Of a DNA stretch of 64,000 nt, positions 1,362-64,000 are shown piece after piece. Position 1 is the stretch's first letter; each line of letters begins with the position of its first letter. The notes under the pieces were generated by a model that was not told the DNA's origin, did no database searches, and worked only from the letters and a program-made list of their open reading frames with translations. A program made the position numbers and the translations under genes. This DNA is from Somniosus microcephalus (lineage: Eukaryota): NCBI GenBank assembly GCA_052327205.1, contig CM126230.1:21638001-21702000 (forward strand), in the 5' to 3' direction.

Positions 1362-1838
1362 CTCATCTACCCTCCGTAAACTTGAGGTCATCCAAAACTC
1401 TGCTGCCCGTGTCCTAACTCGCACCAAGTCCTGTTCACCCATCAGCCCTGTGCTCGCTGACCCAATTCGCACCCAGTTAAGCAAGGCCTCGATTTTAAAA
1501 TTCTCACCCTTGCTTTCAAATCCCTCCATGGCCTCGCCCCTCTCTATCTCTAACCTCCCCCAGCCCTCCGAGATATCTGCACTCCTCTAATTCAGGCCTC
1601 TTGAGCATCCCTGATTTTCATCGCTCCACCGTTGGCGGCTGTGCTTTCAGCTGCCAAGGCCCTAAGCTCTGGAATTCCCACCCTAAACCTCTCCGCCTTG
1701 CTGCCTCTCTTTCCTCCTTTAAGACACTCCTTAAAACTTACCTCTCTGCCCTAATATCTCTTTATGTGGCTCGGTGTCAAATTTCGTTTGATAACCTGTG
1801 CAGCGCCTTGGGACATTTTACGATGTTAAAGGTGCTAA
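1362..1838 (+). mobile_element. L2-type LINE 3' fragment; its tail resumes at 6312-6340 after the Harbinger insertion
   Basis: QNSAARVLTRT..PI.PVL-like translation and L2-type tail 'gggacattttac..ttaaaggtgcta..aaatacaagttgttgttgtt'; homologous copy at 28020-28460. Confidence 0.75.
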
Positions 1839-2192
1839 GGGCTAGATTTTCAGTATAGGCAGTTTTGGGGCGCTAACCTTAGCGCCCGCCCGAAGTTAGC
1901 GCCCGCCCCAAAGTAGTGCCCCGTTGCCGGGAATTCAGTGGCTTCGCCCTAAGAGGTTGGTGGAGCGCTAAAAGAGGCGTTCCACTACTATCTTTAGGTG
2001 CTAAGCCGGCGGTCCAGAGGGATAGCGCCCAGGCGGGGCGCAGCGCGGGTGCGGTCATTTTTGGACTGACAGCAGACCCCGTGGCGCCGACCAGCTCTTA
2101 AAGGGGGAAGGGACGAATTGGTCTGCTGCCACGCCCTGCACACTGCAGCCTTGCAAAGAGGCCTCAACACTGCTGCTCAGCCCCAGGGAGTC

Positions 2193-4175
2193 ATGGCAAC
2201 GCCAGAGAAGGCCCGTCAGCGTGCCCTGCGCTTCTCAGAGGGTGATCTGGACATAATGGTCACAGCTCTGGAGGTGAGGCGCAAGATCTTGTTCCCAGAG
2301 AGTGGGAGGAATCCAACCCACCACGACTACACCAAAGCCTGGAAGCAGATCGCCCAGAGGGTGACGTTCACCGGCGATGCCCCCAGGACCCACAAACAAT
2401 GTCGTAAAAAATACAACGACCTGACCAGGATTGTCAAGGTGAGTAGCCTTTCCAGTCTCCTCCTCATTCTTGCATGTACACCTGACATGATGGGCAAAGG
2501 GAGCTGAAAGTCCTATTGGCCAGCCCTCAGCCAGCAGCATTGGGACAGTCATGAGCATCAAATGGCCATTCGGCACTCTACACTTTGGCCAAGCTATTCC
2601 ACCATGGGAGGCTGTGCACACTACATCAGGGCTTCACTCTGGCCAAGCTATTCCACCATGGGAGGCTGTGCACACTACATCAGGGCTTCACTCTGGCCAA
2701 GCTATTCCACCATGGGAGGCTGTGCACACTACATCAGGGCTTCACTCTGGCCAAGCTATTCCACCATGGGAGGCAGTGCACACTACATCAGGGCTTCACT
2801 CTGGCCAAGCTATTCCACCATGGGAGGCAGTGCACACTACATCAGGGCTTCACTCTGGCCAAGCTATTCCACCATGGGAGGCAGTGCACACTACATCAGG
2901 GCTACACTGCGCACTTACAGCCCGTCCTTTCTCTTGCAGGCTAAAGTAGCCTTTAATCGCCAGGCCCGTGCCAGGGGTGGCCGCGCCAAGCTGCAGAAGC
3001 TCACTCGGCTGGAGGAGCGCGTGTGTGTGCTCATGGGAGCCCGTGTGATCGTCCCCACAGCGTGCGGAGTATCCGACCCTCCACTGCCCGGCAATGGTAA
3101 GGACCTCGCCTTTTGGCCCTCTCGCGTCGCACTGGCCCATCCGAGCTACCTCCTTTGCCACTGTCCCACCAATGCGCTGAATGCCACCAGTCCTAACTCC
3201 CTCGCTGACGCCGTCTCCTCACTCTGAAGCTACTCTTGTGCATTCCTGCTTTCAGCTGGTGACGACCAGGACCCTGAAGCTGCCAGTGACAGCACCTCTG
3301 AGCAGGAGGAGGAGGAGGAGCAAGCCGGACCATCGGGGGAACAGTCACGTCCCGCAGGAGAGGAGGAAATGCTTGACACCTCCTCACTGGACGAGTGCCT
3401 GGAGGAACTGTCGCAGGGCAATGCAGCTTCTGGGACCAGTGGCGTCCAGCCACCCAGGAGCCGTGCGTGTGGCCCGCGGCCTTCCCCCCAAAGGGGGGAA
3501 GGATCAGAGGGGAGTGCTGCTGATCGGCACACTCGCCGCCACCAACGTGGCAAGGGTCCCTTAGTTCGGCCCCCTCCTCCCCAGCGGGAGAGTCGCGACT
3601 CCAGTCCGGACACCTTCACCTCGGAGGAGGTGCGGAAGCTGGATAAGATGGCCGAGGATTCGGACCGGCGCCACACGGAGCTCATGAGCGTGGTGGGGCA
3701 CATGCCTGAGGCCATCGAGTCGCTGGCGACCAGTGTGCGCGAGTTCGGGGCAGCAACTGGCGCGAGTGGCCGCATGCTGACTGATGCCGTCAAGACCCTG
3801 GCGGATGTGATGCGCGCGCACACCAGGACAACAGGGGCACTCACTGCTGCCACATGCGCTGTCTCAGGCAGGCATCGCCAGGGCAGCCGCCGCGCTGGAC
3901 CATCCCAGCAAGCCGCCCCTCGGCTAATTGTTGCGGATCCTGCAGTGCGGGCCCGGCCGAGTGCCACCGCGCCACAGCACCAGCCAGCGCATCCCAGATG
4001 CCAGCTGGCCCACATTGCGCCATCCGTCGCCGCCATTCCCCCACTGGGGCGTCAAGGGCAAGCGGCTGTAGCTGATGGTGGCCAGGCTCAGGTGCGCCAC
4101 TCAGCAGACGGCCCCTCGAGGCCCAAACGCCGTGTAGGCCGCCCCCCCAGCGGCATCTGGCGGAAGGGCATCTGA
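2193..4175 (+). CDS. Harbinger Myb/SANT (trihelix) DNA-binding protein, 3 predicted exons 2193-2438, 2940-3096, 3256-4175 (~440 aa)
   Basis: Exon 1 RFSEGDL..AWKQIAQRV..RTHKQCRKKYNDL is a MADF/Myb-SANT motif; GT-AG sites (aag|gtgagt, ttgcag|, atg|gtaagg, ttcag|) join in frame to ORF 3369-4175 without stops. Confidence 0.85.
2587..2905. repeat. 54-bp minisatellite, ~6 copies, in intron 1 of the Myb gene
   Basis: Unit ggccaagctattccaccatgggaggc(t/a)gtgcacactacatcagggcttcactct starts at 2587, 2641, 2695, 2749, 2803, 2857. Confidence 0.95.
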
Positions 4176-4659
4176 GCCTCAGGCACCTTCCCCCAGCCTC
4201 GCAGCAGCCACTGGGCAGAGCTTGCGAAGGAGCAGCAGGCCGGGCAGGGGAGGCAAAAGGCTGGGCAAGGTCTCGTCCTCGCGGGCCACTCAGTAGAGGG
4301 TGTGGCCAGCTTTCCTTTTATATGGCGGTGGCCATCTTTATTTTGCCCATGGTTGTGTTGTTGGAGGGCTTATTTTTTGCGTTAGGCCGACGTTGAGGCC
4401 CGGTTTGAAGAAAGGTGGAGTGACTCCTCCCCAGTTTGTGGGAGTGAGTCGTTTGTTGGGCTTTTTGTGGGGCCCATTTATTGTTTTTGGGGATTCATGT
4501 GGGAAGGGCTTTTCATTTTTGTGTAATAAAAAATTATCTTTATTCATGCAGTCTCCATGGTTGTTCTTCTTAGTGTTTGTTGGCTTCGCCGGCTGAGGGC
4601 TTGCGGAGCGCCTGCATTCATCTTCCCTCATGGCCCCTGGCCATTCCCTGACAGGGGGC

Positions 4660-5811
4660 TTAGAAGTACCGTGTAATAAGGTGGCGTCGTGCGGCCCTTG
4701 GCCCTGGTCGCTCCCTCCTGGGAACGTACTCCTGCTCCTCCTCCTCCTCCTCCTCATGCTCCTCCTGCTCCTCCTCCTGAGGTGCTGGTCCAACGTCAGG
4801 TGGCAGTGCCTGAGTCCTGCGGATAGCCAGGTTGTGTAGCATGCAGCAAACCACCACAAATTGGGAGACCCGGTCCGGCGAATACTGGAGAGCTCCTCCG
4901 GAGCGATCAAGGCAGCGGAACCGCTGCTTGAGGACCCCAATAGTTAGCTCGATGATGTTATGGGTGGTTTGATGGCTCTCGTTGTAGGCCTCTTCAGCAG
5001 CGGTCCTGGGCGCGCGGAGCGGGGTCATGAGCCAGGTGCACAAAGGATAGCCTTTGTCCCCGAGTAGCCATCCTCTTGGGGGAGGCTGTGCCTGGAACAT
5101 GTCATGCACAGTACTCTGCCGCAGGATAAAGGCATCGTGGCTGCTGCCTGGGAAGCTGGCATTGACTGCCATGATGCGCTGCTTGTGGTCACAGACCAGC
5201 TGCACATTCAGAGAATGGTAGCCCTTCCTGTTGCGATACTGCTCGCCATGCTCCAGAGGGGCCCGCAAAGCCACATGCGTACAGTCAATGGCGCCCTGCA
5301 CCAAGGGGAATTCCCCGAGTCTGGAAAATCCCAATGCGCGCTGATGCTGGCTCTCCAGGGCCATGGGGAAGGAGATGAATTGGCTTCTCCTTCTGAACAG
5401 TGCTTCGGTCACCTGGCAGATGCAGCGATGCGCGCCGTACTGGGAGATGTTTGCTATGTCCCCAGCAGCGTATTGGAAGGAGCCGGTGGCATAGAAGTTC
5501 AATGCCACCGTCACCTTCACTTCCACCGACAGAGACGTCCTGCACCTGAGCTTTGGCCGCAGATCTTGGCGAAGCAGGTGGCAGATCTCTGCAATCACCT
5601 CCTTTCGGAATCGGAGCCTTTTAACACATCGCGCGGCACTCATGTTTAGGTAGGAGCGCTGCTGGCGGTATAGCCTGACTGGGTAAGGCCTACGTGGCCG
5701 ACGCCTGTAGCCCCCTCTGCCTCTAGCCAGGGCTGCCCCTCTCACAATGCGTCTGCGAGCCCTACGGACATGGAGCTGCAGCTCCGCGTTGGCACCCCAT
5801 GCAACCCCCAT
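4660..5811 (-). CDS. Harbinger DDE transposase (HARBI1-like family), intact
   Basis: Uninterrupted ORF with GAIDCTH, NRKGYHSLNVQ, PGSSHD, LGDKGY, IELTIGVLKQRF, CCMLHN; likely ATG at 5811. Confidence 0.93.
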   Translation of the reverse strand: MGVAWGANAELQLHVRRARRRIVRGAALARGRGGYRRRPRRPYPVRLYRQQRSYLNMSAARCVKRLRFRKEVIAEICHLLRQDLRPKLRCRTSLSVEVKVTVALNFYATGSFQYAAGDIANISQYGAHRCICQVTEALFRRRSQFISFPMALESQHQRALGFSRLGEFPLVQGAIDCTHVALRAPLEHGEQYRNRKGYHSLNVQLVCDHKQRIMAVNASFPGSSHDAFILRQSTVHDMFQAQPPPRGWLLGDKGYPLCTWLMTPLRAPRTAAEEAYNESHQTTHNIIELTIGVLKQRFRCLDRSGGALQYSPDRVSQFVVVCCMLHNLAIRRTQALPPDVGPAPQEEEQEEHEEEEEEEQEYVPRRERPGPRAARRHLITRYF

Positions 5812-6690
5812 CAAATCCTGGCAAACACTCAAATTTCCAAAAGGCCACTTGCAGCGCTCTGGCCTGAGTCCAAAAATACCTGAGCTCTTGCTGCTTGAAA
5901 CCAGTTAGCTATCCTCCTTGTTGTGTCTCCAGAAATGCGTTGCACAAGAGTGTTTTCTGAAAAAAGGCTGGCCTTTATACTGGAGAGCACGTCCCCTTTA
6001 ATTTGCGCCCCCCGGGGCCCACGCTGGTTGTGTTGCGTTCCTTTTTCCAAACGCTCCGGCCGCCAGCCGCACAATGGGGCGGTCCGACTGAAGTTTGGAA
6101 TCGGGGCGCACAAAGGGCGTTGCACGAGGATGTGACGTCATTTTCTGCGCGCGCATCCGGGCGGGCGCTAAACTTTGTGCCGGCGCTAACGGGCAACTTA
6201 ATTTGGGGCGGGGCGCAAACTGCGCTGCGCACGGGCGCTACACGCATAGCGCCCGAAAATCACTTCTCTTAAGGCGCTAACTGCTGGCGCTATCAACTGA
6301 AAATCTAGCCCTAAATAAATACAAGTTGTTGTTGTTGTAGTTGATAAACTGAATGGTCAGATATTACAATCACACTGATCATGTGCAAAATTTTACTAAA
6401 AGCAACACATTGGGCTGGATTTTAATTCAGGGGCGGGCTGGGGTCGTGTAATCCGTATTTCGTGTTATCCACCCGAATCTAAATCGATGTGGGAGATTGA
6501 TGCGAATTTAACTTAATTGGCCAATTGAGTTCCAACGTGTGGGAACCCATGGCCAATGAGTTTTTCCAGTCTGAAAGTCGCCTCCAATGACGTCATCATT
6601 GCTGCTGCATTTAAGGTCTGCAACAAGCCTTGCTTCTTCTGCAGACTGCCAAGCTTTTGGCCTTTCATGCTACAGGGACCTGGAGGAAGA

Positions 6691-8610
6691 ATGACCAGCT
6701 AGAGACCTAGGTCTGCCCCCAGGTTTGATGACGTTGCCTTGCAGGCTTTAGTTGAGGGAGCAAGAGCTCATAAAGAGGTGCTCTTCCCTTCTTCAGGGAG
6801 GAAGAAGCCTCTCCAGCAGACCAAGGCTGTGTGGGTCCAGGTGGCAGAGGAGGTCAACTCATTATCAGTAACCCGCAGAACCTGGATTCAATGCAGGAAG
6901 AGATTTCATGACCTTCTGCGCACTGGAAAAGTGAGTATGGATTTCCCATCACCCTCAATCTGATCCCCATTGCCTTTCCTCACCAGCACTCAGCTTTAGC
7001 AATCTCTTCTTCCACATCCCACTTGACACAGACATCCATGCACCCTTACCCATTCCCTCTCTCTCTATGCTCATATTCACCTAACTATTCGACTATGCAG
7101 CCCTCACACTCCCTATCACTGTGATGCTATGAAAACAACTGACAACACACAGGGAGGGCCCATGGTCTTTCCACCTCACTCCATCTTTGTCTCCTTCTAA
7201 GTATCTATGCTATGGAATCTCTACACTCACTCCTTCATTCTCACTCAACCTCCACTTGTCTCCCTTATTGCAGGCGAAGAGAGCTCACAATAAGTGAGAA
7301 AGAGTGAGGACGGGAGGAGGGCCACCCTCAGTAGCCCACCTCACCTCCTGGGAGGAGGCGGTCCTGGAGATCGTAGGAGTGGAGGAAGATGCACAAGTGG
7401 GGGATGGACAGAGGGGTGCATCACAGCAAGCTGGCGACAGAATAGTTTTCCATCTCTCGCATTGACATTGCATGAGTCACTGATAATGATTCTGAAGCTC
7501 TAACAGATGGACTTATGATCATCTGCAATATGCAAGGTGCATGTAACCTTGGCATCACATCTCTGACTCTTTCCTTTACTCCCTCACAGGACCATCGCAA
7601 GCACCCGTCCCCACTAGCCAGGAGGAACAGCATGAGCCTCTAGACTCCTCAGAGGAAGCTGCAACCTCTGAGGGCGCAGCATCTGCAGAATTCAGCGCAC
7701 CCAGCACCAGCGCAGACACTCACACCTCGGTGGGACCTTCGGGACACAGAGTATGGTGTATCACAGCTCACAAGTGAGCATCAGCAGATTGTGGAGACAG
7801 GGAAAGCAGTGGAGAGTCCTCATCGGAGGGCGCAGGACTCTGCCAGCTCGGCTCAGCTGCATGTCGAACCTCTGCCTCTGGGTCCATCCATAAGATCAGC
7901 GGTGCTAGAACTCCAGGAACAGATGCAGGAGTCTCTGGCAGGTTTTGTCTCCAGGGTCGCTGCGAGTGTGGAGCGAATGGAGGAGTCCATAGCAAACATG
8001 AGCAGAGCCTTTGTGGAGTCATTGGCACATGAACGCATCACCATGGAAAGGATGGCAACCTCCATGGAGGTGATAAGTCGCCAGAGTGCAGAAAACATGG
8101 TGAGTGTTCAGAATAGAATGACATCTCTGGAGGAGCGATGGTCATCTATTGAACAGAGAAACCAGACCTTCATGGAAGTCCTTCTGAGTAGGACTGCCAG
8201 TGCAGATATGGGTCCCCATGGCCCCCCTGATGTGCAGCAAGGTGCTCTCAAGCCACTTGCAAGCGCTGAGGGGGACCTGACCCATGAGAGGGAAGTTGGT
8301 GGCAGACATCAAGGAAGTGGGGGCTCCTCTCCAAGCGCTCACACTTCCATGCCACTGCAGAGCTCGGTCAGAGCCCCACCAGAGTCCACACCCATCTGAT
8401 ATCGGCGTCTCAACCCCTGCACAGCCGCAGGAGCAACAGACTGTTGCCGAGCCCTCACAGGTTCACAACCCCAGAGGACGCCCGCCAAAGGTGTCGAGAG
8501 AGGAGCAGCAGGAAAGTGAGCAAGGGACCTTGACATCTGCTGAAGCCACAGGGGAAGCAGCACGTAAGAGCACAAATAGTCACAAGGGTAGCCACAAGGG
8601 TGAAATTTGA
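6691..8610 (+). pseudogene. Harbinger Myb/SANT gene with in-frame stops
   Basis: Exon 1 PRFDDVALQALV..VWVQVAEEV..RTWIQCRKRFHDL to donor at 6931; TAG at 6700-6702; exon 2 from 7274 has TGA at 7295-7297; coiled-coil-like last exon (ORF 7791-8399). Confidence 0.8.
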
Positions 8611-8836
8611 TGTTTTCTGTGAAAAAACCATCAGGTGAATAATGTAAATAAAAAATCTGATGGCTACTGCTATAGTTGTGGCGTGTGTCATTTCGTGAAT
8701 GGGACTTTCACATTGAGGGCTAAGGATTACTTGCAATTGTCAGTATGGTGGTCAAATTGCTAGGAATCCACTGGTCCTTGGCCATTGTCGATGCTCAGGT
8801 AAGAAGCTGCGAGGCAAAAGTGCTTGATTGGCTAGG

Positions 8837-10081
8837 CTAAGCAAATCTGGCCAAGATGAGTGCGTTCCTTGCATCCCGGGCAGCTATGTTCTCGCGTACT
8901 GCTGCCGCTGGTTGATGGGCCTCTGCAAGATACTCGTTTTCGCTCTCCTCCTCCTCCTCCGAGGAGGAGGAGGAGGATATGTGACGAGCCACTTGGTCCT
9001 CAGGAATCTGCAAGCCACGACGCTGTGCCATGTTGTGAAGTGCACAGCAAACCACGATGATTCTGGCGACCCTGGCTGCTGAGTACTGCAGGGCTCCACC
9101 TGATCTATCCAGGCATCTGAAGCGCATCTTCAGCAAACCGATGGTTTGCTCGATTATGGCTCTGGTGGACATGTGGCTGGAGTTGTAGCTCTCCTCAGCT
9201 TCGTTGGATGGGCTCCTCAACGGCGTCATTAGCCATGTCTTCAGGGGATAGCCCTTGTCTCCAAGTAGCCCTCCATTAAGTTGGTCTGGCAGACTGAATA
9301 GCGGAGGCACACTAGACTGGTGCAGTATGAAGGAGTCATGGCAACTGCCAGGGTACTTGGCACAAACATGCAAAATTTCCTTCTTGTGGTCACACACCAG
9401 CTGAACGTTAAGGGAGTGGAAGCCCTTGCGGTTGACAAAAATACCTGCATTGCGATGGGGTGCCTTAAGGGCCACATGTGTGCAGTCAACGACGCCCTGT
9501 ACCCTTGGAAAGCCTGCCAGATTAGCTAATCCAACCGCACGCGCCGTGACACTTGCTTGATCCTTGGTGAAATGGATGTGATTGTGCGCGATGGCAAAGA
9601 GGGCATCGGTTACCTGCGTGATGCAAGTGTGTGCAGCCGCCTGGGAGATGCCGCTGATGTCTGCTGCTGATCCCTGGAATGAGCCAGAGGCAAAAAAGTT
9701 GAGTGCGGTGGTGACTTTGATGGCCACTGGTAAGAGTTGTCCACCTGGTCCTCTGGCCTGCAGGTCTTGTTGCAGCATTGCGCAGATGTCACCCACTACC
9801 TCTCGCAAAAGTTGGAGCCACCTTTGGCACTGCTGCTCAGACATGTTGAGGTAGCTGACCCTGTGTCTGTAGACCCTGTTTGGGGGGTATCTCCTGTGCC
9901 AACGGGCTTCCATGCACTGGCCCCTTCTGGCCTGTGCAGCTTCAGGTGGGTGAGCAGCAGCTTGGCGCTCCTGCTGGTGCTGCTGCTGTTGGTGCTGCTG
10001 TTGTTCCTGGTTCTGCTGGTGCCGCGGCTGGTCTTCGTCCTCATCTAATGTCCAGAAGGGAAGGAAAAAAAGGCCTCCCAT
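8837..10081 (-). CDS. Harbinger DDE transposase, open ORF of 414 aa
   Basis: [48 protein letters not shown] motifs; poly-Q N-terminus. Confidence 0.9.
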
Positions 10082-11004
10082 GCTTCTGGTAGATGCCTCA
10101 GTTGAGGAAGCGCTCAGTGAAGGTGGCGAGAGGGGTTTCCCAGGAGGTCACACTGGAGATGGGTGTCAGGCTCCAAACTTCCACAGCTGTGGTTATGCCT
10201 TCTAAAAGTTCCCCCAGACCTGAGACTACAAAGTCCTGCCACCTGCAAATGATGGCTGATCAAATCTCCTCTTTAATGGTTGAGCTGCAGCTGATAGTCA
10301 GCAATCCAATGGTGCTCCTACCAGGTTTCACCGTCGTGTTTCAGAACAGGCGTGTTTCACGTGGGAAAAGGGTTAAAATTGCAAAGGCCTTTCAAAATGG
10401 CATTATAGAGGCAATTTAGTGCTTGTTAAGGGCCTTAAGGGCCTATCCCGCCTCTTGGAGGCGGGACGGAGATAGGACCATTAGACACGAATTAATGAAA
10501 ATTGCTTGGAGGCAGGGTTGGGCCTGCATGGCAGTTTTTGCAATTTTAACCCCACACACGCCTCCAATCCCGCCTCCACGGCCCAATGAAAATCCTGCCC
10601 ATTGTCTCACCGTACATGAAAGCCACCATTTTCTTAAAGGGATAGCGCATTCTAAACCTGGCCTGAAATAGAAGAAAAATGTAGATCTTTTTTCAGAAAG
10701 ATTGATCTAGAAGATTACATAATATATCATTTGGCAATGCACTTTTAGTTTTGAATCAAATTAGGTTAAAATAAATTATCAGGCAATATTTAGCAAAACC
10801 ATGGGGATTATTTGTAAAGCTAATGTGTGAAAGCTAACTCAGAGTATAGCATATAGCTGAACTAATGTCAAATATCTATAGCATAGTAAAAATCTTAATG
10901 CACTTCCTACAAGGCCGTACTTGCTGTCATCATGTTTTTGTCACAGTTTTTCTGTTACAAATTGCTATGTCCATATTTATAATGGAAACTGCTTATGTAT
11001 TATG

Positions 11005-15677: not shown

Positions 15678-16132
15678 TTTCTTTGTTGAATTCAAAGAAA
15701 TGGCTGTTCTCAGTAATGCTACTGAACCAACTGGTCCTGGAGTTCCAAATTCTCAGGCCTTTGATGTGCCGTCTATTGTTGGATTTCTCCTTTCATTAGG
15801 TGTGATGGTATCAGCTGTTTTTGAGACTGTGAAGTCAAGGACAGGCAGATTTTCAATAAGGTAGGGTCTTCCATGGTTCTTGAAGTTTGCAATCAGATAG
15901 GACAACAATAGTACAGTATCACATTGTCACTTGAGTGATATCTGATATGAAAAGGGAAGTATTCACTAAAAAAAATGATCATATTCTCAATAATTGAAAA
16001 CCTGGGATTGGGCTTTCTGCCTGAGTCAATTAAAATTATGATGGCCATCCGCAGGTACAGGCACTGCTTCATACTTGACTCTTTTTCCAAGCAACAATGA
16101 ATCTGACTCTATCACCTTGAGGAAATATTATT

Positions 16133-16869
16133 GGCCCAGAAATTCAGGTCTCCACGGGTGAGTACGCACGGGGTACTCACCCGTAAGCCCAATGGAAGTG
16201 CCGGTTTCCTGCATGCACTGCGCATGCGCGGGAAACCGGCACTTCCGTTCCCCTGAACGAAGGGGTTCAGAGTTCGAACGCGTGCGCAGGAGAGGCTGCG
16301 AGTGTGCATCGAACTTCGTTTTTTTTTTACAGGTTTTCCCGGGAGGGTAAGTCTGCAGAATTTATACATATAAAAAGCAGGCGTAAGGCCTGCTTTTTAC
16401 AAGGTAAGTGATGAATTAATTAAAATTAAAACATTTTTTCCACAGGTTTATTATTTTTAAATACTTTAAAGCAAGGTAAGTTTATTTTTAGCCCTGTTAG
16501 AAAATAAAATTATTTTTTTCAAAAATTTAAATTACTGTTTAAAATAGTTATTTCATGTAATCTATAGTTTATTTAAAAAATGTGATTTTTAAAAAATTTA
16601 TTTGAAGATTTAGTGATGTTTTGGGGCCTGTAGTATTTCTAAGTTTTGACAGCTCTTCCTGTCAAACTTATGAATGGAGCATTCCCTGCTCCGATTGGCT
16701 CCCTATGGCCCACGTGATCCCAGGGGACGCATCGAACTCTGGGATACGCAAGCGCTGTGCGCTGGCAGCTGGAGCAGGCCCAGGATCGCAATTCCACGGG
16801 GGCCCACAGCTCAACGGCCGGCGCGCAAGGTTGCACCCGCGGGAAGTCCCCGACCCGAATTTCTGGGGC
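16133..16869. mobile_element. Harbinger-type MITE with internal palindromes
   Basis: TIRs ggcccagaaattcagg / cccgaatttctggggc; AT-rich core; several internal hairpins; TSD not matching. Confidence 0.6.
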
Positions 16870-17220
16870 TGTCCTGCTGACTTTGGTTATTTTGCATTTA
16901 GAACTTCCCTGACCAAGTGAGAATTGGTCATTTTAAGGGCCTTTTCCATTCAAAGAAAGGCTGTGAGTGAAGGCGAAGATAAGGGTTTAAATCGCCACTT
17001 CGTACCTTTGCCAAAGTTTTAGCAACAGAATATTGGGAAGGTGGGATATTAGGCATCCCAACATAAGAATATAAGAACATAAGAAATAGGAGCAGGATCG
17101 GCCATTTGGCCCTTCAAGTCTGCTCTGCCATTCAATAAGATCATGGCTGATCTTCTTTCTCATCTCCACTTTCCTGCACTATCCCCATATCCCTTGATTC
17201 CCTTAATATTCAAAAACTCT

Positions 17221-18411
17221 GGGGTAGATTTTGGCGATCCTGTCGGGAAGAAGGCGAGACTTCAACTTTCGGGTTTTTGACCCGCCTACTTTGACATCCG
17301 GCTAATCCGCGCGATTTTCCCTTGATTGACCTTGTTAAGCCCGCCCAGCGGGCTCAGCAGGCCAATTATGGGCCACCCGGCAACAGGTGACGTCACAGAC
17401 TGCAATTTCATCTGTCAAGAGTGCTTGACAGATGAAATATCAGTGTTTCACAGCTGTTTGAAGCTGTGAAACACTGACAGTTTGAGTTCTAAGCTGAGTC
17501 CTTCTACGCAGACTCAGTTAGAACTGTCACCGGCACTCAAAGCTGAAGGCTGTCACTTTTCACAGATCACAGCCGTTCAGCTTTAAGTTCCGGGTGAGTG
17601 ATGCGCTCCCGACGGCTACAGGAAGAAAGGCTGTGAAGGTAAGTACAGGTAAGTAAAAGTTCTTTACACACTTTAGACACACCAAACACACTTACCTTTG
17701 CACTGCACTGCAGTGGTTAGCACTGTTGCCTCACAGCGCCAGAGACCCGGGTTCGAATCCGGCCTCGGGCGACTGTCTGTGTGGAGTTTGCACATTCTCC
17801 CCGTGTTTGCGTGGGTTTTCTCCGGGTGCTCCGGTTTCCTCCCACAGTCCAAAGATGTGCGGGTTAGGTTGATTGGCTATGATAAATTGACCCTTAGCGT
17901 TAGGGGGATTAAATACGTGGGGTTACAGGGATAGGGTGGGATATGTGTTGGTGTAGGGGTTACGGGGATCGGGTGGGATATGTGTCGGTGCAGGCTCGAT
18001 GGGCCGAAATGGCCTCTATCTGCACTGTGGGGTTTCTGTGATTTCTGTGATTTCATGCACCCATCACTAACCTGAGCGCCGACATCGCGACCCCTCCAAC
18101 TCCTTCAACACAACGGCCCGCCGCTCCAACCTGCCGTGGTTTGGAGCCGTCGGGAAACCCAAACGAAACCCCTTAAAATAGGGATTAGGCTAAAAACTGC
18201 CTGTTAACTACCTGTTAACAGGCAGTTAATTGGCACTAATCCCTTCCCGCCTCGGGTCGGCAGGTCCCAGTGTGGGGCGGGTACCCGCTGCCCCTGAAAC
18301 TTACGTGGGGCGGGGTTTGGGCGGGATAGTGGCGGGACCCCCAAAATCGGGATTTCCCCCCCCCCCCACATGCCTGAAACCCCGCCTGACGGCTCCCCAA
18401 AAATTTAGCCC
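17221..18411 (+). mobile_element. Harbinger-type MITE, hairpin-cassette family A (contains an HE1-like SINE)
   Basis: TIRs ggggtagattttgg / ccaaaaatttagccc; TCT TSD (17218-17220, 18412-18414); homologous to 62335-63171. Confidence 0.85.
17706..18053 (+). mobile_element. HE1-like V-SINE
   Basis: tRNA head (agtggttagcac..gggttcgaatcc), V-domain 'gtgtggagtttgcacattctccccgtg..ccggtttcctcccacagtccaaagatgtg', CR1-like tail. Confidence 0.88.
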
Positions 18412-19164
18412 TCTGTCTTGAATATACTCAACTACTGAGCCTCCACAGCCCTCTGGGATAGAGAATTCCAAAGATTCACCATCCTCTGAGTGAAGAAATT
18501 TCTCCTCATCTCAGTCCTAAATGGCCGATCCCTTATTCTGAGACTGTGACCTCTGGTTCTAGACTCCCCAGCCAGGGGAAACATCCTCCCTGCACCTAAC
18601 CTGTCAAGCCCTGTAAGAATTTTGTATGTTTCAATGAGATCACCTCTCATTCTTCTAAACTCTAGAGAATTTAGGCCTAGTCTACTCAATCTCTCCTCAT
18701 AGGACAATCCCCCCATCCCAGGAACCAATCTGGTGAACCATTGTTGCACTCCCTCTATGGCAAGTATATCCTTCCTTAGGTAAGACCACCAAAACAGTAC
18801 ACAATACTCCAGGTGTGGTCTCACCAGGGCCCTATGAGAAAGCCAATGTTTCATTTAGTTGTCATGTCAAGTGATGGGTTTTCTCCAGTCTTCAGGGCTG
18901 CAGTATTTGCTCTCTGAGTAACTATCATGGTAAAAGTTTGATATGGGTAGGACGTGAAACAACTGTGACCAGTAGGACTCATTTCTTCAGGACTCTGAAG
19001 TTTCTATCAGCTTTTGCCATCTGCTTGCTCCAATGTAGCAGAGATGTTCTGCTTATCAAGCTAGCCGCTGGATGTTTGAATTCTTTCCCTTGCCCTCTCT
19101 TCTTTTAAGACCTTCCTTTAAATCTACCTCTTTGGTCAAGTACCTGGTCACTGTCCTTTGGCTT

Positions 19165-19730
19165 TACTCTCCAAAGCCTTTCCACCATTTACAAGGCACA
19201 AGTAAGGAGTGTGATGGAATACTCTCCACTTGCCTGGATGAGTGCAGCTCAAAACAACACTCAAGAAGCTCAACACCATCCAGGGCAAAGCAACCCGCTT
19301 GATTGGCACCCCATCCACCACCTTAAACATTCACTCCCTCCACCAGCGGCGCACCGTGGCTGCAGTGTGTACCATCTACAAGATGCACTGCAGCAACTCG
19401 CCAAGGTTTCTTCGGCAGCACCTCCCAAACCCGTGACCTCTACCACCTAGAAGGACAAGGGCAGCAGACGCATGGGAACACCACCACCTCCAAGTTCCCC
19501 TCCAAGTCACACACCATCCTGACTTAGAAATATATCGCTGATCCTTCATCGTCGCTGGGTCAAAATCCTGGAACTCCCTCCCTAACAGCACTATAGGAGT
19601 ACATTCACCACATGGACTGCAGCGGTTCAAGAAGGCAGCTCACCACCACCTTCTCGAGGGCAATTAGGGATGGGCAATAAATGCTGGCCTTGCCAGCGAT
19701 GCCCTGATCCCATAAACGAATAAAAAAGAC
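19165..19730 (+). mobile_element. Non-LTR retrotransposon 3' end (same family as 133-631)
   Basis: Direct homology to the reverse complement of 133-631; A-rich tail. Confidence 0.75.
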
Positions 19731-20018
19731 GCTATATAAATACAAGTTGTTGTTGTTGGCTTGGCATTTGTCTTCCTCATGCTTCTGTGAAGCGCCTTGG
19801 GCTGTATGAATGCAAGTGCTGTGCCTATTGAAGAGAATTCGGCGCCCCTTGTGGAGGAGAGATGTCTGGATAACATCACAAACTTTCTTGACGGTGTTAT
19901 TGACTTAACCTGTGCAGCCCCGAGTACATACCTCTTGTCACACCTCTGCACAGCTATCCCTGTCTGTTCACAGTGCCTCAGTCACTGATTATTGCTCCTG
20001 GTGCCAGTGGGAACCAGA

Positions 20019-20817
20019 GGGCTGGATTTTGCCAATGGGGAGCTTTTGGAGGCGAAACTCCCCACTTGTCGGGTTTCAGCCCCGCCTCCATCAACTTCTG
20101 GCCAACCCACGCTATTTTCCCTTGATTGACCTTGTTAAACTCGCCCAGCAGGCTTAGCAGGCCAATTAAGGGCAGCCGGTTATAGAGAACGTCAATGTAT
20201 GACGTTTCATCTGTCAAAAATTTTTGATCGATGAACTGTCTTTGTTTGACAGCTCTGTGAAGCTGTCAAACACTGACATTCTCTGTTGTTTGATGTGCCC
20301 TTGTGTTCGAGACCTCATCAAACATCTTTTGCGAGCAGAAAGCAGATGGCTGTAGCATCGGAGAATGCAGCAGCCATTCTGTCGTCTCTGCCGGTGAGAT
20401 GCCGGAGCCTCCGGTTCCCCAACTGTTGAAGCCTGCAGGAAGAAACAAAGGTAAGTAAACATTTTCTATCACCTCACACACTTACCTCTCCACACTTGCA
20501 CCCATCACTTACCTCCACAGCGGACTTTTGGACCCCTCCGACCCCCGCAGACCCACTGCTCGCCTCGCTGACCCTGGCGAGATTCGCAGCCGTCGGGAAG
20601 CCCGCACTTGCAGGGGTAAAATGGGGATAATCCTCTTAATTGCCTGTTAACTACTTGTTAGCAGGCAGTTAAGTGGCTGTAATCCCCTTCCCAGCGTGGG
20701 TCGGCTACCCGCCTCCTGGGAAGATGGCACGGGGTGGGCACCCGCCCACAGATTCTGCTATTTTCCCGGCAGTCCCGCCTCCAAACCCGCCTCCCCAGGG
20801 CTGGCAGAATTCCCCCC
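20019..20817 (+). mobile_element. Harbinger-type MITE, hairpin-cassette family B
   Basis: TIRs gggctggattttgcca / tggcagaattcccccc; AGA TSD (20016-20018, 20818-20820); homologous to 47238-48068 and more distantly to family A. Confidence 0.85.
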
Positions 20818-22147
20818 AGAGTGTTTCCAATATTATCACTACTGCTACAACAACAACAACTTGCATTTACGTAGTGGTTAATTCTGCTTGAGAAATCTCA
20901 TCTCCTGGTCATGTGTTTAATGTCAATTTTTAAATATTCTTAAACAAAGAACCTGTAGTTCACTTACTCCAGTTCAGTTCTTCTCTGTGCTATTTTTAGA
21001 TAACAGGTTTGCATCAAGTTCTGTGTGCTGTGTTTCAAAGAAAAAAGAAAAGACTTGCATTTCTATAGCGCCTTTCACGAGCACCGGACGTCCCAAAGCG
21101 CATCACAGCCAATTAAGTACTTTTGAAATGTAGTCACTGCTGTAATGCAAGAAGTTGTTAATCCCTTCATTTTAAACGGGTTAATGACTATTTTAAAATA
21201 GCACAGGTAAGGATTTGATGGAAACACGTTAACCAGTGTGCTAAATATAGCACACAGAGGAATCTCTATCCGTGTGTCTTTTAATCAGAGAATTTGAGAC
21301 AAGCAAATAAACCTGAGAATTTTCAATCAAAGAGGTCACAACTTACAGCTAAATTATTCAGACTATTATAATCTGACTATTTGACTTAAAAGCTCAAGAC
21401 TTGAATGTGGTTAAGTGGTTTAATTTCTTTTGGTAGCACAATGGAATTTTACACAAACATGTTAACCAATGTGCTACATTAAATTAAATATCTAGCGGAT
21501 TGAAATTGCTCTCTGCAATATTAGCAACAAACACATTGGCACGGATGTTGCGGTCAGCAGTGAACGATCGGTGCCAGCCGTTCATTACACTTCCACTTGC
21601 CCACAGACTTTCAGTGGGCTTCTACACGGGAACTTGCTGTGATTCGAAATCCAGAACAGCACGGCGCCCTCTACAGGGGACCTGGGACCTGTGTGAACAG
21701 GGCAAGCAACTGTGTGTCTCCTCAACCAATCCGATTGATGAATCCTTCCTGAGGCACGCAGAATCGGAACCAGGAAGTGTAAGCTAGAACATTTAATTTA
21801 ATGCCAAATCATGTACAGAAAACAAAATAAAGAGAGGGAAAGAAAGATGGGATTAAGAGAGAGAGAGAGAAAAGAGACAGAAAGACAAAGTACAAACATT
21901 TCTTTTTAAAATCTCCAACAATAATTAAAATCTGATGGAATGAGACTCTACACTTATAAAAGGTTACTTTTCAATGCCAGAGAGGTTGTTTGGCAGTAAT
22001 TAAGATTTATCACTCTGTTAAAAATTCACTTACACTTGAATGGACAAGCCCTAACTTTTTCTGGCTTGTTTAGTGGGTATCTAAAATGTAAGTATTGCAA
22101 CTTCAGGCCCTTCATGTATTTGAATACCGAGTCTCTGGCAAGATACT

Positions 22148-34974: not shown

Positions 34975-35319
34975 TCACAGAAACCCCACAGTGCAGATAG
35001 AGGCCATTTCGGCCCATCGAGCCTGCACCGACACATATCCCACCCGATCCCTGTAACCCCTACACCAACACATATCCCACCCTATCCCCGTAACCCCACG
35101 TATTTAATCCCCCTAACACTAAGGGTCAATTTATCATAGCCAATCAACCTAACCCGCACATCTTTGGACTGTGGGAGGAAACCGGAGCACCCGGAGGAAA
35201 CCCACGCAAACACGGGGAGAATGTGCAAACTCCACACAGACAGTCACCCGAGGCCGGATTCGAACCCGGGTCCCTGGCGCTGTGAGGCAACAGTGCTAAC
35301 CACTATGCCACCGTGCTGC
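34975..35319 (-). mobile_element. HE1-like V-SINE
   Basis: Reverse complement of 17706-18053. Confidence 0.88.
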
Positions 35320-35789: not shown

Positions 35790-37490
35790 TAAATGCACTC
35801 TCACCTCTGAGTCAAAAGGTCATGGGTTTGAGTCCCACTCCAGAGACTTGAGCACAAAAATCCAGGTTGACACTTCAGTGCAGTGCTGAGTGAGTGCTGC
35901 ACAGTCAGATGGGCAGTACACAGGATTAGATCGGATTACATCGGATATATGGCACAGAAACAGGCCATTCGGCCCGACCAGTCCATGCCGGCGTTAATGC
36001 TCCACACGAGTCTCCACCCATCTTTCCTCATCTAAATCTATCAGCATAACCCTCGATTCCCTTCTCCCTCATATGCTGGTCCAGCCTTCCCCTTAAATGC
36101 AGTACTGAGGGAGTGCAGCACTGTCGGAGGGGCCATACTGAGGGAGTGCAGCACTGTTGGAGGGGCCATACTGAGGGAGCACTGCACTGTCGGAGGGGCC
36201 ATACTGAGGGAGTGCAGCACTGTCGGAGGGGCCATACTGAGGGAGCACCGCACTGTTGGAGGGGCAGTACTGAGGGAGCGCCGCATTGTCGGAGGGGCCA
36301 TACTGAGGGAGTGCAGCACTGTCGGAGGGGCCATACTGAGGGAGCGCCGCACTGTCGGAGGGGCCATACTGAGGGAGTGCCGCACTGTTGGAGGGGCAGT
36401 ACTGAGGGAGCGCCGCATTGTCGGAGGGGCCATACTGAGGGAGTGCAGCACTGTCGGAGGGGCAGTACTGAGGGAGCGCCGCACTGTCAGAGGGGCAGTA
36501 CTGAGGGAGCGCCGCACTGCTGGAGGGGCAGTACTGAGGGAGCGCCGCACTGTCAGAGGGGCCATACTGAGGGAGTGCCGCACTGTCAGAGGGGCAGTAC
36601 TGAGGGAGCGCCGCACTGTCAGAGGGGCCATACTGAGGGAGTGCTGCACTGTTGGAGGGGCAGTACTGAGGGAGCGCCGCACTGTCAGAGGGGCCATACT
36701 GAGGGAGTGCCGCACTGTTGGAGGGGCAGTACTGAGGGAGTGCAGCACTGTCGGAGGGGCCATACTGAGGGAGTGCCGCACTGTTGGAGGGGCAGTACTG
36801 AGGGAGCGCCGCACTGTCGGAGGGGCTATACTGAGGGAGTGCCGCACTGTTGGAGGGGCATTGCTGAGGGAGTGCAGCACTGTCAGAGGGGCAGTACTGA
36901 GGGTGTGCTGCACTGTCAGAGGGGCAGTACTGAGGGTGTGCCACACTGTCAGAGGGGCAGTACTGAGGGTGTGCCGCACTGTCAGAGGGGCAGTACTGAG
37001 GGTGTGTTGCACTGTCAGAGGGGCAGTACTGAGGGAGTGTCGCACTGTCGGAATGGCAGTACTGAGGGAGTGCCACACTGTCGGAGGGGCAGTGCTGAGG
37101 GAGTGTCGCACTGTCAGAGGGGCAGTACTGAGGGAGTGCTGTACTGTCAGAGGGGCAGTACTGAGAGAGAGCTGCACTATTGGAGGTGGTGTACTTTGGA
37201 TGTTAAAGCAAGATCCTGTCTGCTCTCTCAGGTGGACGTACAAGATCCCATGGCACTGTTCGAAGAAAAGCAGGGGAGTTATCCCTGGTGTCCTGGCCAA
37301 TATTTATCCCTCAACCAACATCTAGTCACCATCATATTGCTGTTTGTGGGAGCTTGCTGTGTGTAAATTGACTGCCACGTTTCCCACATTACAACAGTGA
37401 CTACACTTCGAAAGTACTTCATTGGCTGTAAAAGGCTTTGGGCATCTGAGGTTGTGAAAGGCGCTATAGAAATGCAAGTCTTTCTCTTCT
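35790..37490 (+). mobile_element. DeuSINE-like SINE containing a CR1 3' fragment (~35920-36100, minus) and an expanded internal minisatellite
   Basis: SINE head at 35790-35915 and body/tail at 37190-37490 flank the array. Confidence 0.7.
36100..37190. repeat. 33-bp minisatellite, ~33 copies
   Basis: Unit actgagggagtgcagcactgtcggaggggc(c/a)(a/g)t; matches the SINE internal segment (cf. 11755-11790). Confidence 0.95.
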
Positions 37491-47237: not shown

Positions 47238-48068
47238 GGGCACGATCTTGCCAGCCCTGGGGAGGCAGGTATGGAGGCGGGACTGCTGGGAAAATGGCAG
47301 AATGGGTGGGTGCCCAACCCGCCCCCCAACCCGCCTCCGTGCCATCTTGTCAGGAGGCGGGTAGCCGTCCCATGCCAGGTCCCGTCTCCTTGGAGGCGGG
47401 AAGGGATTACAGCCACTTAACTGCCTGTTAACAGGTAGTTAACATGCAGAAAATAGGCTTATCACCATTTTGCCCACACAAGTGCAGGCTTCCCGAAGGC
47501 TCCGAACCCCACCAGGTCAGCGAGGTGAGTAGTCGGTCTGCGGGATGCAAAGGTGTGCTGTGGAGGTGAGTGATGGGTGCAAGTGTGTAGAGGTGAGTAT
47601 CTGAATTAAGTGGAAAGTGTTAGAAAAAGTGTACTTACCTTTGTTTCTTCGTGCAGGCTTTAGTCGGTGGGTATGCGGAGAGTCTCACACCTCCGCGATA
47701 GAGATGACAGATGGCCGTTGCATTCTCCAATGCAACAACCATCTCATTTCTGCAAAAGAAAGAGGTTTGATGAGGTCTTGAATTCAAGGCCTCATCAAAC
47801 TACAGAGAATGTCAGTGTTTGACAGCTTCACAGAGCTGTCAAACGATGACAATTCATCTGTCAAAAATTTTTGACAGAAAAAAGTCATACGTTGACGTTC
47901 TCTGTAACCGGCTTTCCCTTAATTGGCCTGCTGAGCCCGCTGGGTTAGCTTAACGAGGTCAATCAAGGGAAAATAGCATGGGTTGGCCAGACGTTGATGG
48001 AGGTGGGACTAGAACCCAACAAGTGGGAGTCCCGCCTCCAAAAGTTCCCCATTGGCAAAATCACCCCC
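47238..48068 (-). mobile_element. Harbinger-type MITE, hairpin-cassette family B
   Basis: Reverse-complement homology to 20019-20817; ends gggcacgatcttgcca / tggcaaaatcaccccc. Confidence 0.8.
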
Positions 48069-49132: not shown

Positions 49133-49481
49133 CACAGAATCACAGAAACCCCACAGTGCAGATAGAGGCCATTTCGGCCCATCGAGCCTGCACCGACACA
49201 TATCCCACCCGATCCCCGTAACCCCTACACCAACACATATCCCACCCTATCCCCGTAACCCCACGTATTTAATCCCCCTAACACTAAGGGTCAATTTATC
49301 ATAGCCAATCAACCTAACCCGCACATCTTTGGACTGTGGGAGGAAACCGGAGCACCTGGAGGAAACCCACGCAAACACGGGGAGAATGTGCAAATTCCAC
49401 ACAGACAGTCACCCGAGGCCGGATTCGAACCCGGGTCCCTGGTGCTGTGAGGCAACAGTGCTAACCACTATGCCACCGTGC
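49133..49481 (-). mobile_element. HE1-like V-SINE
   Basis: Near-identical to 34975-35319. Confidence 0.88.
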
Positions 49482-62152: not shown

Positions 62153-64000
62153 TCACATAAGAACATAAGAAATAAGACCAGGAGTCGGCCATACGGCCCC
62201 TCGAGCCTGCTCCGCCATTCAATAAGATCATGGCTGATCATCGACCTCAATTCCACGTTCCTGCCTAATCTCCTTATCCCTTGATTCCCCTAGAGTCCAA
62301 AAATCTGTCTATCTCAGCCTTGAATATACTCAAAGGGCTGGATTTTCATTCAACAGTCGGGAAGGAGGACTACAACTTTCGGGTTTTAGTCCCGCCTCCA
62401 TCGACGTCCGGCCAATCGACGCGATTTTCCCTTGATTGACCTTGTTGAGCCCGCCCAGCGGGCTCAGCAGGCCAATTAAGGGCCACCCGGCAACAGGTGA
62501 CGTCACAGACTGACATTTTATCTGTCAAGAGTTCTTGACAGATGAAATATCAGTGTTTCACAGCTGTTTGAAGCTGTCAAACACTGACAGTCTGACTTCT
62601 AACCTGAGTCCTTCTACACAGACTCAGTTAGAACTGTCACCGGCACTGAAAGCTGAAGGCTGGCACTTTTGACAGTTCGCAGCCATTCAGCTTTCAGTGC
62701 CGGCTGAGTGATGGACTCCTGACGCCTAGAGGAAGAAAGGCTGTTAAGGTAAGTACAGGTAATTTAAACTTCTTTACACACTTTAGACACACCAAACACA
62801 CTTACCTTTGCACTCATGCACCCATCACTCACCTGTACACCGACATCTCGACCCCTCCAAGTCCTTCAACCCGACGGCCCGCCTGCTCTAACCTGGCGTG
62901 GTTTGGAGCCGTCGGGAATCCCACACGACACCCCTCAAAATAGGGATTAGGCTAAAAACTGCCTGTTAACTACCTGTTAACAGGCAGTTAAGTGGCACTA
63001 ATCCCTTCCCGCCTCGGGTCGGCGGGTCCCAGTGCGGGGCGGGTACCCACCTCCTCTGAAACTTACGTGGAGGCGGGTTTTGGGCGGGATGGTGTCGGGA
63101 CCCCCGAATTCGGGATTTTTGCCCCCCGCACGCCTAAAAGCCCGCCTCACGGTACACTGAAAATCTGGCCCTTTAAAGACTCAGCATTCACAGCCCTCTG
63201 GGGCAGAGAATTCCAAAGAGTCACAACCCTCTGAGTGAAGAAATTCCTCCTCATCACAGTCTTAAATGGCTGACCCATTATCCTGAGACTGTGCCCCCTA
63301 GTTCTAGACTCTCCAGCCAGGGGAAACAACCTCTCAGCATCTACCCTGTCAATCCCCTTCAGAATCTTGTATGTTTCAATGAGATCACCTCTCATTCTTC
63401 TAAACTCCAGAGAGTATAGGCCCATTCTACACAATCTCTCCTCATAGGACAGCCCAGGAATCAATCTAGTGAACCTTCATTGCATCACCTCCAAGGCAAG
63501 TATATCCTTCTTTAGATAAGGAGACCAAAACTGTGCACAGTACTCCAGGTGTGGTCTCACCAAGGCCCTGTACAATTGTAGCAAGACTTCCTTACTCTTA
63601 TACTCCAATCCCCTTGCAATAAAGGCCAACATGCCATTTGCCTTCCTTATTGCTTGCTGTACCTGCATGCTAGCTTTCTGTGTTTCTTGCACGAGGACAC
63701 CCAAATCTCTCTGAACACCAACATTTGAAAGTTTCTCACCATTTAAAAAATATTCTGTTTTTCTATTCTTCCTACCAAAGTGAATAACCTCACATTTCCC
63801 TACATTATACTCCCTCTGCCACCTTACTGCCCACTCACTCAGTCTATCTATATCCCTTTGCAGACTCTTTGTGATCTCCTCACAGCTTACTGTCCCACCT
63901 AGCTTTGTATCGTCAGCAAACTTGGATACGTTACACTCGGTCCCTTCATCCAGGTCACTAAAATAGATTGTAAATAGTTGAGGCCTCAACACTGATGCAT
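62153..64000 (-). mobile_element. CR1 LINE 3' portion split by a MITE (62153-62334, 63172-64000)
   Basis: ORFs 63477-63992 and 63147-63464 RT motifs; (acataaga)n tail. Confidence 0.9.
62335..63171 (+). mobile_element. Harbinger-type MITE, hairpin-cassette family A (uninterrupted copy)
   Basis: TIRs gggctggattttca / tgaaaatctggccc; colinear with 17221-18411 once the SINE is removed. Confidence 0.85.

Follow-up and report, generated by a model that had tools for sequence, protein, structure and literature searches.

The window analysed here is a stretch of 64,000 nt from Somniosus microcephalus (assembly GCA_052327205.1, contig CM126230.1, positions 21,638,001 to 21,702,000, forward strand). 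It carries copies of a hairpin-bearing, non-coding element of about 840 bp with short TIRs. The copy at 17.4 kb, its parts and the other copies in the window are arranged as follows.

17221-18411, plus strand: MITE copy of subfamily A1, about 840 bp plus a later insertion, with a TCT target duplication.
17221-17232, plus strand: core of the left TIR, corresponding to the Myb-gene end of the parent.
17247-17291: hairpin HA, a palindrome of the GC box (GGCGGG) situated upstream of the TATA box of the parent, its core conserved between subfamilies.
17319-17372: hairpin H0, bearing an inverted CCAAT pair, with loop inversions in single copies.
17388-17395: the motif TGACGTCA, from the parent's Myb promoter.
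17405-17438: H1, a TGACAG palindrome spanning a 25-nt deletion of the parent's TATA-like box, near-invariant in sequence between subfamilies.
17440-17477: H2, a palindrome from the Myb 5' UTR directly ahead of the start codon, with a TGACAG core in most subfamilies.
17487-17523: H3, built on the opening codons of the Myb exon; its symmetry is kept while its sequence drifts.
17530-17593: H4, derived from the antisense strand of DNA that directly precedes the transposase start in the parent; again symmetry is kept and sequence drifts.
17620-17704: unstructured middle, in which both strands carry 5'-splice-site-like motifs; the homologous part of the 62-kb copy bears the strand-biased RNA peak.
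17712-18043, plus strand: later repeat insertion foreign to the MITE, with 98% identity to 34975-35304 and 49138-49469.
18180-18244: hairpin H5, at the transposase end, with inner 14-bp arms near-invariant between subfamilies.
18400-18411, plus strand: core of the right TIR.
20019-20817, plus strand: MITE copy of subfamily B, with an AGA target duplication.
47238-48068, minus strand: MITE copy of subfamily B2, in which H3 is a near-perfect palindrome to its centre; the flanks show no exact duplication.
62335-63171, plus strand: MITE copy of subfamily A with a C-C mismatch in H2, used as the reference for RNA read mapping.

The insertion at 17712-18043 is, from its features, presumably SINE-like. 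A preliminary description of this DNA had named the element a Harbinger MITE with three further copies in the window. All three copies are present, and the assignment is borne out by the TIRs, the 3-bp target duplications and a two-gene Harbinger parent. The element is a non-autonomous Harbinger MITE derived by reduction of a two-gene Harbinger; it has its TIRs in common with the autonomous Harbinger of family H, and its target site is palindromic, of the GACAC-NNN-GTGTC type. An exact 3-bp target duplication was found in 47 of the 88 copies with both ends called, and a duplication with one mismatch in 21 (shuffled mean 4.3, maximum 11). Fourteen full copies lie within 364 kb around the window. 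Six were found in 640 kb of stretches not picked for the element, 200 kb of which surrounds actin-family genes, giving an estimate of about 60,000 copies (95% range 22,000-132,000) in this vertebrate genome of 6.4 Gb. Between 54 and 81% of MITE words are present in sequencing runs under three organism labels. The literature listings covered here contain no description of this element or of Harbinger MITEs with TGACAG palindromes; it may be catalogued in supplements or repeat databases.

The flanks of the 62-kb copy read AAA on the left (62326-62334) and TTTAAA on the right (63172-63177), with no plain 3-bp duplication. TIR positions 4-7 differ among A copies, and the variants recur across subfamilies; the copy at L007:1342-2186 has the same variant at both ends. 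The mosaic appearance of the subfamilies suggests exchange among source elements.

The Harbinger expansion in this genome is very large: a first look yielded about 97,000 transposase candidates and 130,000 candidates for the Myb exon, with many open frames of 386 aa. Harbinger has been reported as undetected in elephant shark, in an account that leaves other cartilaginous fish open (PMC9179366). In the window, two full-length two-gene Harbingers adjoin each other at 6413-10600 and 1838-6312, each with the Myb gene on the plus and the transposase gene on the minus strand. The former has an open transposase frame of 436 aa and an early stop in the Myb exon, and the latter a 54-bp tandem array within a Myb intron. 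A further tandem array occupies 35971-37260 and consists of some 32 or more units of 33 bp.

In the 17.4-kb copy, H1 is indeed a perfect stem of 15 bp and H2 one of 16 bp, H3 and H4 fold as had been claimed, and the GC box, CCAAT and TGACGTCA stand ahead of the hairpins. The 201 nt of the four hairpins fold at -100.4 kcal/mol on the plus strand (z -10.6, equalled by none of 200 shuffles), and the minus strand of the same 201 nt folds better (-109.6, z -13.0). The picture of a bounded cassette of four hairpins had to be given up: further hairpins lie at 17247-17291, at 17319-17372, at 18180-18244 and close to the right end. Hairpins thus cover both subterminal regions, leaving the middle of the element free.

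Pairing is kept between subfamilies that have diverged considerably. Of 196 cassette sites, 62 (about 32%) are different in subfamilies E and A, yet the fold reaches -104.5, as against -44.3 +/- 4.2 when the changes are placed randomly (0 of 150). All four cassette tests of this kind gave 0 of 150, as did seven of the eight tests on the promoter and right-end regions, the exception giving 10 of 150. The internal symmetry is therefore maintained far beyond chance, as had been proposed, and this maintenance is element-wide, including the promoter and the right end. The individual changes listed in the preliminary description fared differently. Both H4 pairs are exchanged as described: among 51 aligned copies, one is A-T in 39 and T-A in 12, the other A-T in 36, T-A in 12 and unpaired in three. 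H3, said to be largely replaced yet still pairing, has been rebuilt in each lineage and does still pair. The exchange of C-G for G-C in H2, by contrast with its description as a difference between families A and B, is restricted on the C-G side to subfamily A1 (17 of 19 copies, including the 17.4-kb copy). That pair is a C-C mismatch in every one of the 30 family-A copies, the 62.5-kb copy among them, as well as in all three A3 copies, and the other lineages have G-C. The TGACAG core of H2 is altered on one arm in A3 and A, and on both arms in A1. Covariation over the 51 copies holds for the two clean A-T/T-A swaps in H4 and for one of the 16 pairs of H2, but not for H1, where the single case among 13 pairs occurs in one sequence. 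Pairs changed on both sides number 11 against 12.0 in shuffles (417 of 500), and cells 58 against 31.8, counts that ignore relatedness and include a one-column register shift of H3 between lineages.

The ancestry of the element could be followed back to a coding transposon. By way of diverged relatives it was traced to family G (1.7 kb, with a decayed Myb exon) and then to family H, whose full-length copies of 4.2-4.5 kb carry convergent Myb and transposase genes. Nine of 20 extended H loci match transposase, and H copies match the transposase of the relative in the window at 55-70%. Pfam recognises Myb_DNA-bind_5 (PF13873) in the H and G exons and DDE_Tnp_4 (PF13359) in the window relative. 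Family G is a deletion derivative of H, and the 880-bp family F, which aligns to H in three blocks, connects G with subfamilies E, B, C, D, A3, A and A1. Alignment of consensuses identifies the GC box, CCAAT and CRE-like motif as the Myb promoter of the parent. The same promoter and the Myb 5' UTR gave rise to H1 and H2, Myb codons to H3 and the opposite-strand transposase leader to H4. Two other assignments were rejected: H4 does not span the Myb/transposase junction, both of its arms coming from the transposase side, and the first transposase family found (30 loci) is not the parent, as it has no match to the MITE. Folding strength and symmetry rose along the lineage from H through G and F to the MITE, the mean folding z of the consensuses being -0.6 for H, -1.0 for G, -2.7 for F, -4.2 for E and -4.0 for A; among single copies, an A copy gives -4.0 and a LINE-like copy -0.2. 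Introns and UTRs of autonomous Harbinger families were not palindromic. Eleven other or related short Harbinger-type elements of this genome all have negative mean z (-0.9 to -5.0) and a similar subterminal layout of varying degree. This is a rare case in which the birth of a MITE can be traced stepwise from protein-coding exons to an array of palindromes.

Exon 1 of the parent's Myb gene (L191-L220) already contains three short inverted repeats within the reading frame, and in family G some of these have been made perfect, with conserved residues sacrificed in the process.

Where constraint acts became apparent from a comparison of source lineages with inserted copies. On a tree of ten subfamily consensuses, changes per site amount to 0.04 for H1, 0.09 for the H2 core, 0.11 for H5, 0.16 for H0 and 0.25 for HA, as against 1.19 for H3, 0.81 for H4 and 0.79 elsewhere. 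In source lineages the rates of the first five are thus lower than those of the rest by a factor of 3-20, with the proviso that stem classes were defined after inspecting the data and that most copies are best hits to cassette queries. Among 136 inserted copies of eight subfamilies, after masking of misaligned stretches, stems have the same singleton rate as other sites, rare doubles with compensation number 15 against 13.6 expected, and singles that repair a mismatch number 13 against 11.6, which is the neutral rate. An apparent excess of compensated doubles (40 against 17) was an artefact of misaligned copies with insertions and was gone after masking. Given the low rates at source level and the neutral decay after insertion, H1, the H2 core, H0, HA and H5 are fixed in sequence only in lineages that went on transposing, H3 and H4 are fixed in symmetry only, and copies are under no constraint once inserted. 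Selection on jumping copies can thus be distinguished from neutral decay of landed ones. Perfect pairing is not needed, since source families with mismatches succeeded; family A, with its C-C in H2, is the most homogeneous subfamily (2.7% from consensus).

Copying from one arm to the other is visible in single copies as well as in source lineages. The H0 loop is flipped in four single copies, to differing extents and in one with repair of a wobble; the centre of H1 is flipped in one copy, one arm of H5 has been perfected by copying in one, and the H5 loop is inverted in one. H3 was lengthened by rewriting of its 5' arm in B but of its 3' arm in C, D and A, and in the B2 consensus (three copies) the palindrome is perfect to the centre. 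Changes at source level are clustered (220 adjacent against 126 expected) and rich in transversions. Other compensations went via successful sources that carried a mismatch, C-C in A3 and A and T-T in A3. An APOBEC-like TCA/TGA bias in source changes was considered and rejected as weak (9 of 61 swaps). The loop inversions, the H3 extensions and the clustering match what template switching would produce, a process reported to create and maintain stems (PMC8794818; PMC5453318). Intrastrand conversion, put forward earlier as the neutral alternative, is accordingly seen directly in the loop inversions, but it is too rare in inserted copies and leaves the fixed sequence of five palindromes unexplained. 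With single-base repair proceeding at the neutral rate in inserted copies, the copying that maintains H3 and H4 would have to be linked to transposition or filtered by selection.

The motif TGACAG accumulated along the same descent. In the left 420 nt its count is 0 in H, 1 in G, 3 in F, 6 in E and 7 in A, and a count of 7, taken over any 6-mer, was attained in 5 of 2000 shuffles that preserve structure. Family H has one TGACAG palindrome, upstream of the transposase gene, and none in the left end. The same TTTGACAG core arose in an unrelated group of MITEs with no match to H, G or the hairpin MITE: in 20 of its 21 copies a TGACAG-core hairpin with covarying outer arms stands about 25-30 nt past CCAAT, and the remaining copy has a hairpin without TGACAG at the same place. 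The ends of this group match another Harbinger clade, which contains 0-1 TGACAG per 3.6 kb in six copies, and its true parent may be unsampled. One copy of the group, with CCAAT and TGACAG-core hairpin, lies in the window at about 16100-16867 on the minus strand (palindrome near 16647), 350 bp from the A1 copy. TGACAG occurs only in some MITE families and is lacking in several; spacers range from 4 to 16 nt, and A1 loses three sites.

The explanation we consider probable, with some reserve, is that the internal palindromes of this Harbinger MITE act at the DNA level, were selected for mobilisation and were fed by arm-to-arm copying. Palindromic binding sites in DNA had been one of the options raised at the outset, and it is the best-supported reading. 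In this model, selection on the few copies still jumping would keep double-stranded palindromes that likely aid mobilisation, which putatively occurs in trans by the Myb and transposase proteins of H. The fixed palindromes would be protein-binding sites, with the element-encoded Myb/SANT protein perhaps occupying the GC-rich subterminal ones and a host TGACAG-binding factor possibly bound at H1 and H2. Gap repair is expected to raise the number of template-switch events. Mirror changes would be supplied by template switching, which repair of the excision gap probably boosts, and selection on transposition would then retain the useful ones. The symmetry of H3 and H4 might itself be selected, through extrusion or nucleosome exclusion, or be a by-product of copying.

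A neutral ratchet would dispense with selection on hairpins altogether: once coding constraint is gone, template switching in post-excision gap repair would perfect and extend chance inverted repeats. Much of what is seen would follow from it, namely the loop inversions and the arm-perfecting event in single copies, the block-wise growth of H3, which ran in opposite directions in two lineages, palindromes perfect to the centre, the clustered source changes, the negative mean z of all 11 other short Harbinger-type elements and the reported ability of template switching to make and keep stems (PMC8794818; PMC5453318). Palindromes made by copying alone should, however, drift neutrally, and the five conserved ones instead change 3-20 times less in source lineages, although they mutate at the normal rate once inserted. 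The non-palindromic introns and UTRs of autonomous families also speak against the ratchet, which would not predict the recurrence of the same TTTGACAG core in an unrelated MITE, and we regard a purely neutral origin as unlikely.

Alternatively, only shape might be selected, in the form of an extrudable DNA structure near both ends (cruciform, single-strand hairpins or nucleosome exclusion), with no protein specifically reading H1 and H2. H3 and H4, whose symmetry is kept at background substitution rates, would fit such a requirement, as would the restriction of structure to two subterminal regions here and in other MITE families and the lack of strand bias. The sequence invariance of H1, the H2 core and H5 is at odds with it, as are the long-lived mismatches in successful subfamilies, so that selection on shape alone seems to us quite improbable.

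The preliminary description had also proposed a structured RNA, such as a miRNA-like cluster or regulatory RNA, which would here be expressed from the retained promoter. The GC box, CCAAT and CRE-like motif were inherited from a real promoter, H4 has a pre-miRNA-like length, and its wobbles lean towards G-T on the plus strand. Two RNA runs contributed reads to the element, 6,637 out of 16.65 M and 17,538 out of 14.40 M. They form a strand-biased peak at 62727-62866, with tops of 2526 against 594 (4-fold) and 5131 against 293 (17-fold), and in one of the two runs a plateau over H3-H4 with a 4-6-fold bias; strand is uncalibrated in both runs, as the chosen actin-family gene has no exon coverage and its repeats give minus/plus ratios of about 0.8 and 2.5. 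None of the listed runs holding MITE words is on record as RNA, and the 17 runs listed include no small-RNA library. Lying beside the hairpins, in the unstructured middle and flanked by splice-donor-like motifs, the peak is left unexplained by the DNA-level reading favoured above, and the reads over the hairpins speak against that reading.

5'-splice-site-like motifs occur on both strands of 62727-62866 and the homologous middles at 3.6-8.2 per kb, compared with a background of 1.1, and at 6.5 per kb in the unrelated MITE group.

The structure itself gives little indication of an RNA. The minus strand folds better in nine of 11 cassette consensuses, and the strand bias in G-U pairs proposed as a check is absent overall: unique mismatches in consensus stems comprise 10 G-T against 12 A-C, and those in the cassette three against five. 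An Rfam scan found no family near its cut-off, its one hit in 17200-20900 scoring 23.4 bits against 98 and lying on the minus strand. Drosha substrates have a minimum size that excludes stems as short as H1 and H2. With the TATA-like box deleted, pairing maintained equally at the right end and upstream of the parent's TATA, the arms of H4 derived from the opposite-strand gene, inserted copies decaying neutrally and a fold that would give a cut-and-paste element nothing in cis, a functional RNA is very improbable. "Compensatory" changes in repeats are hence no proof of RNA.

A narrower proposal concerns the TGACAG sites. TGACAG is described as the monomer (HEXA) site of Prep/Meis, and TALE factors as acting with NF-Y at CCAAT in early zebrafish embryos; in the same account the partnership with NF-Y is tied to the 10-bp DECA motif and not to HEXA, which is little used at blastula (PMC6023610). 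Unrelated shark Harbinger MITEs might independently have evolved TGACAG palindromes next to a retained CCAAT, thereby recruiting a host TALE factor together with NF-Y, opening the element in the germline or early embryo and out-competing their parents for transposase, while template switching would mirror new sites. We hold this scenario to be doubtful, and the convergence on TGACAG is a lead rather than a result. If it were true, cassettes numbering in the tens of thousands would be available as TALE/NF-Y enhancers and would disperse sites for developmental regulators, and host-factor recruitment would allow the question of why MITEs are more numerous than their parents to be tested directly.

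Several known systems invite comparison. With TALE HEXA/NF-Y sites the MITE shares the presence of several TGACAG motifs near CCAAT; unlike them, it lacks the full DECA motif, and its occupancy by TALE factors is putative. Template-switch hairpin mutations resemble the changes seen here in their loop inversions, multiple compensations and one-step stem extensions, and are described for RNA genes and the human genome (PMC8794818; PMC5453318), whereas the present case is a DNA transposon in which some palindromes are also fixed in sequence. The target of zebrafish Harbinger3_DR is like the GACAC-NNN-GTGTC type of the shark MITE but has a different central triplet (PMC3016246). Some internal sequences are known to modulate how readily MITEs move (PMC9921582). 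Tourist-like PIF/Harbinger MITEs, such as rice mPing and the Harbinger-1M_cIno derivatives, are likewise non-coding products of internal deletion of a two-gene Harbinger, with TIRs and a 3-bp duplication (PMC13668399). Their duplication is a plain TWA, whereas that of the shark MITE is mostly W-rich within a GACAC/GTGTC palindrome, and the shark MITE differs further in that its interior has been rebuilt from parental exons into tiled palindromes through intermediates that can still be traced.
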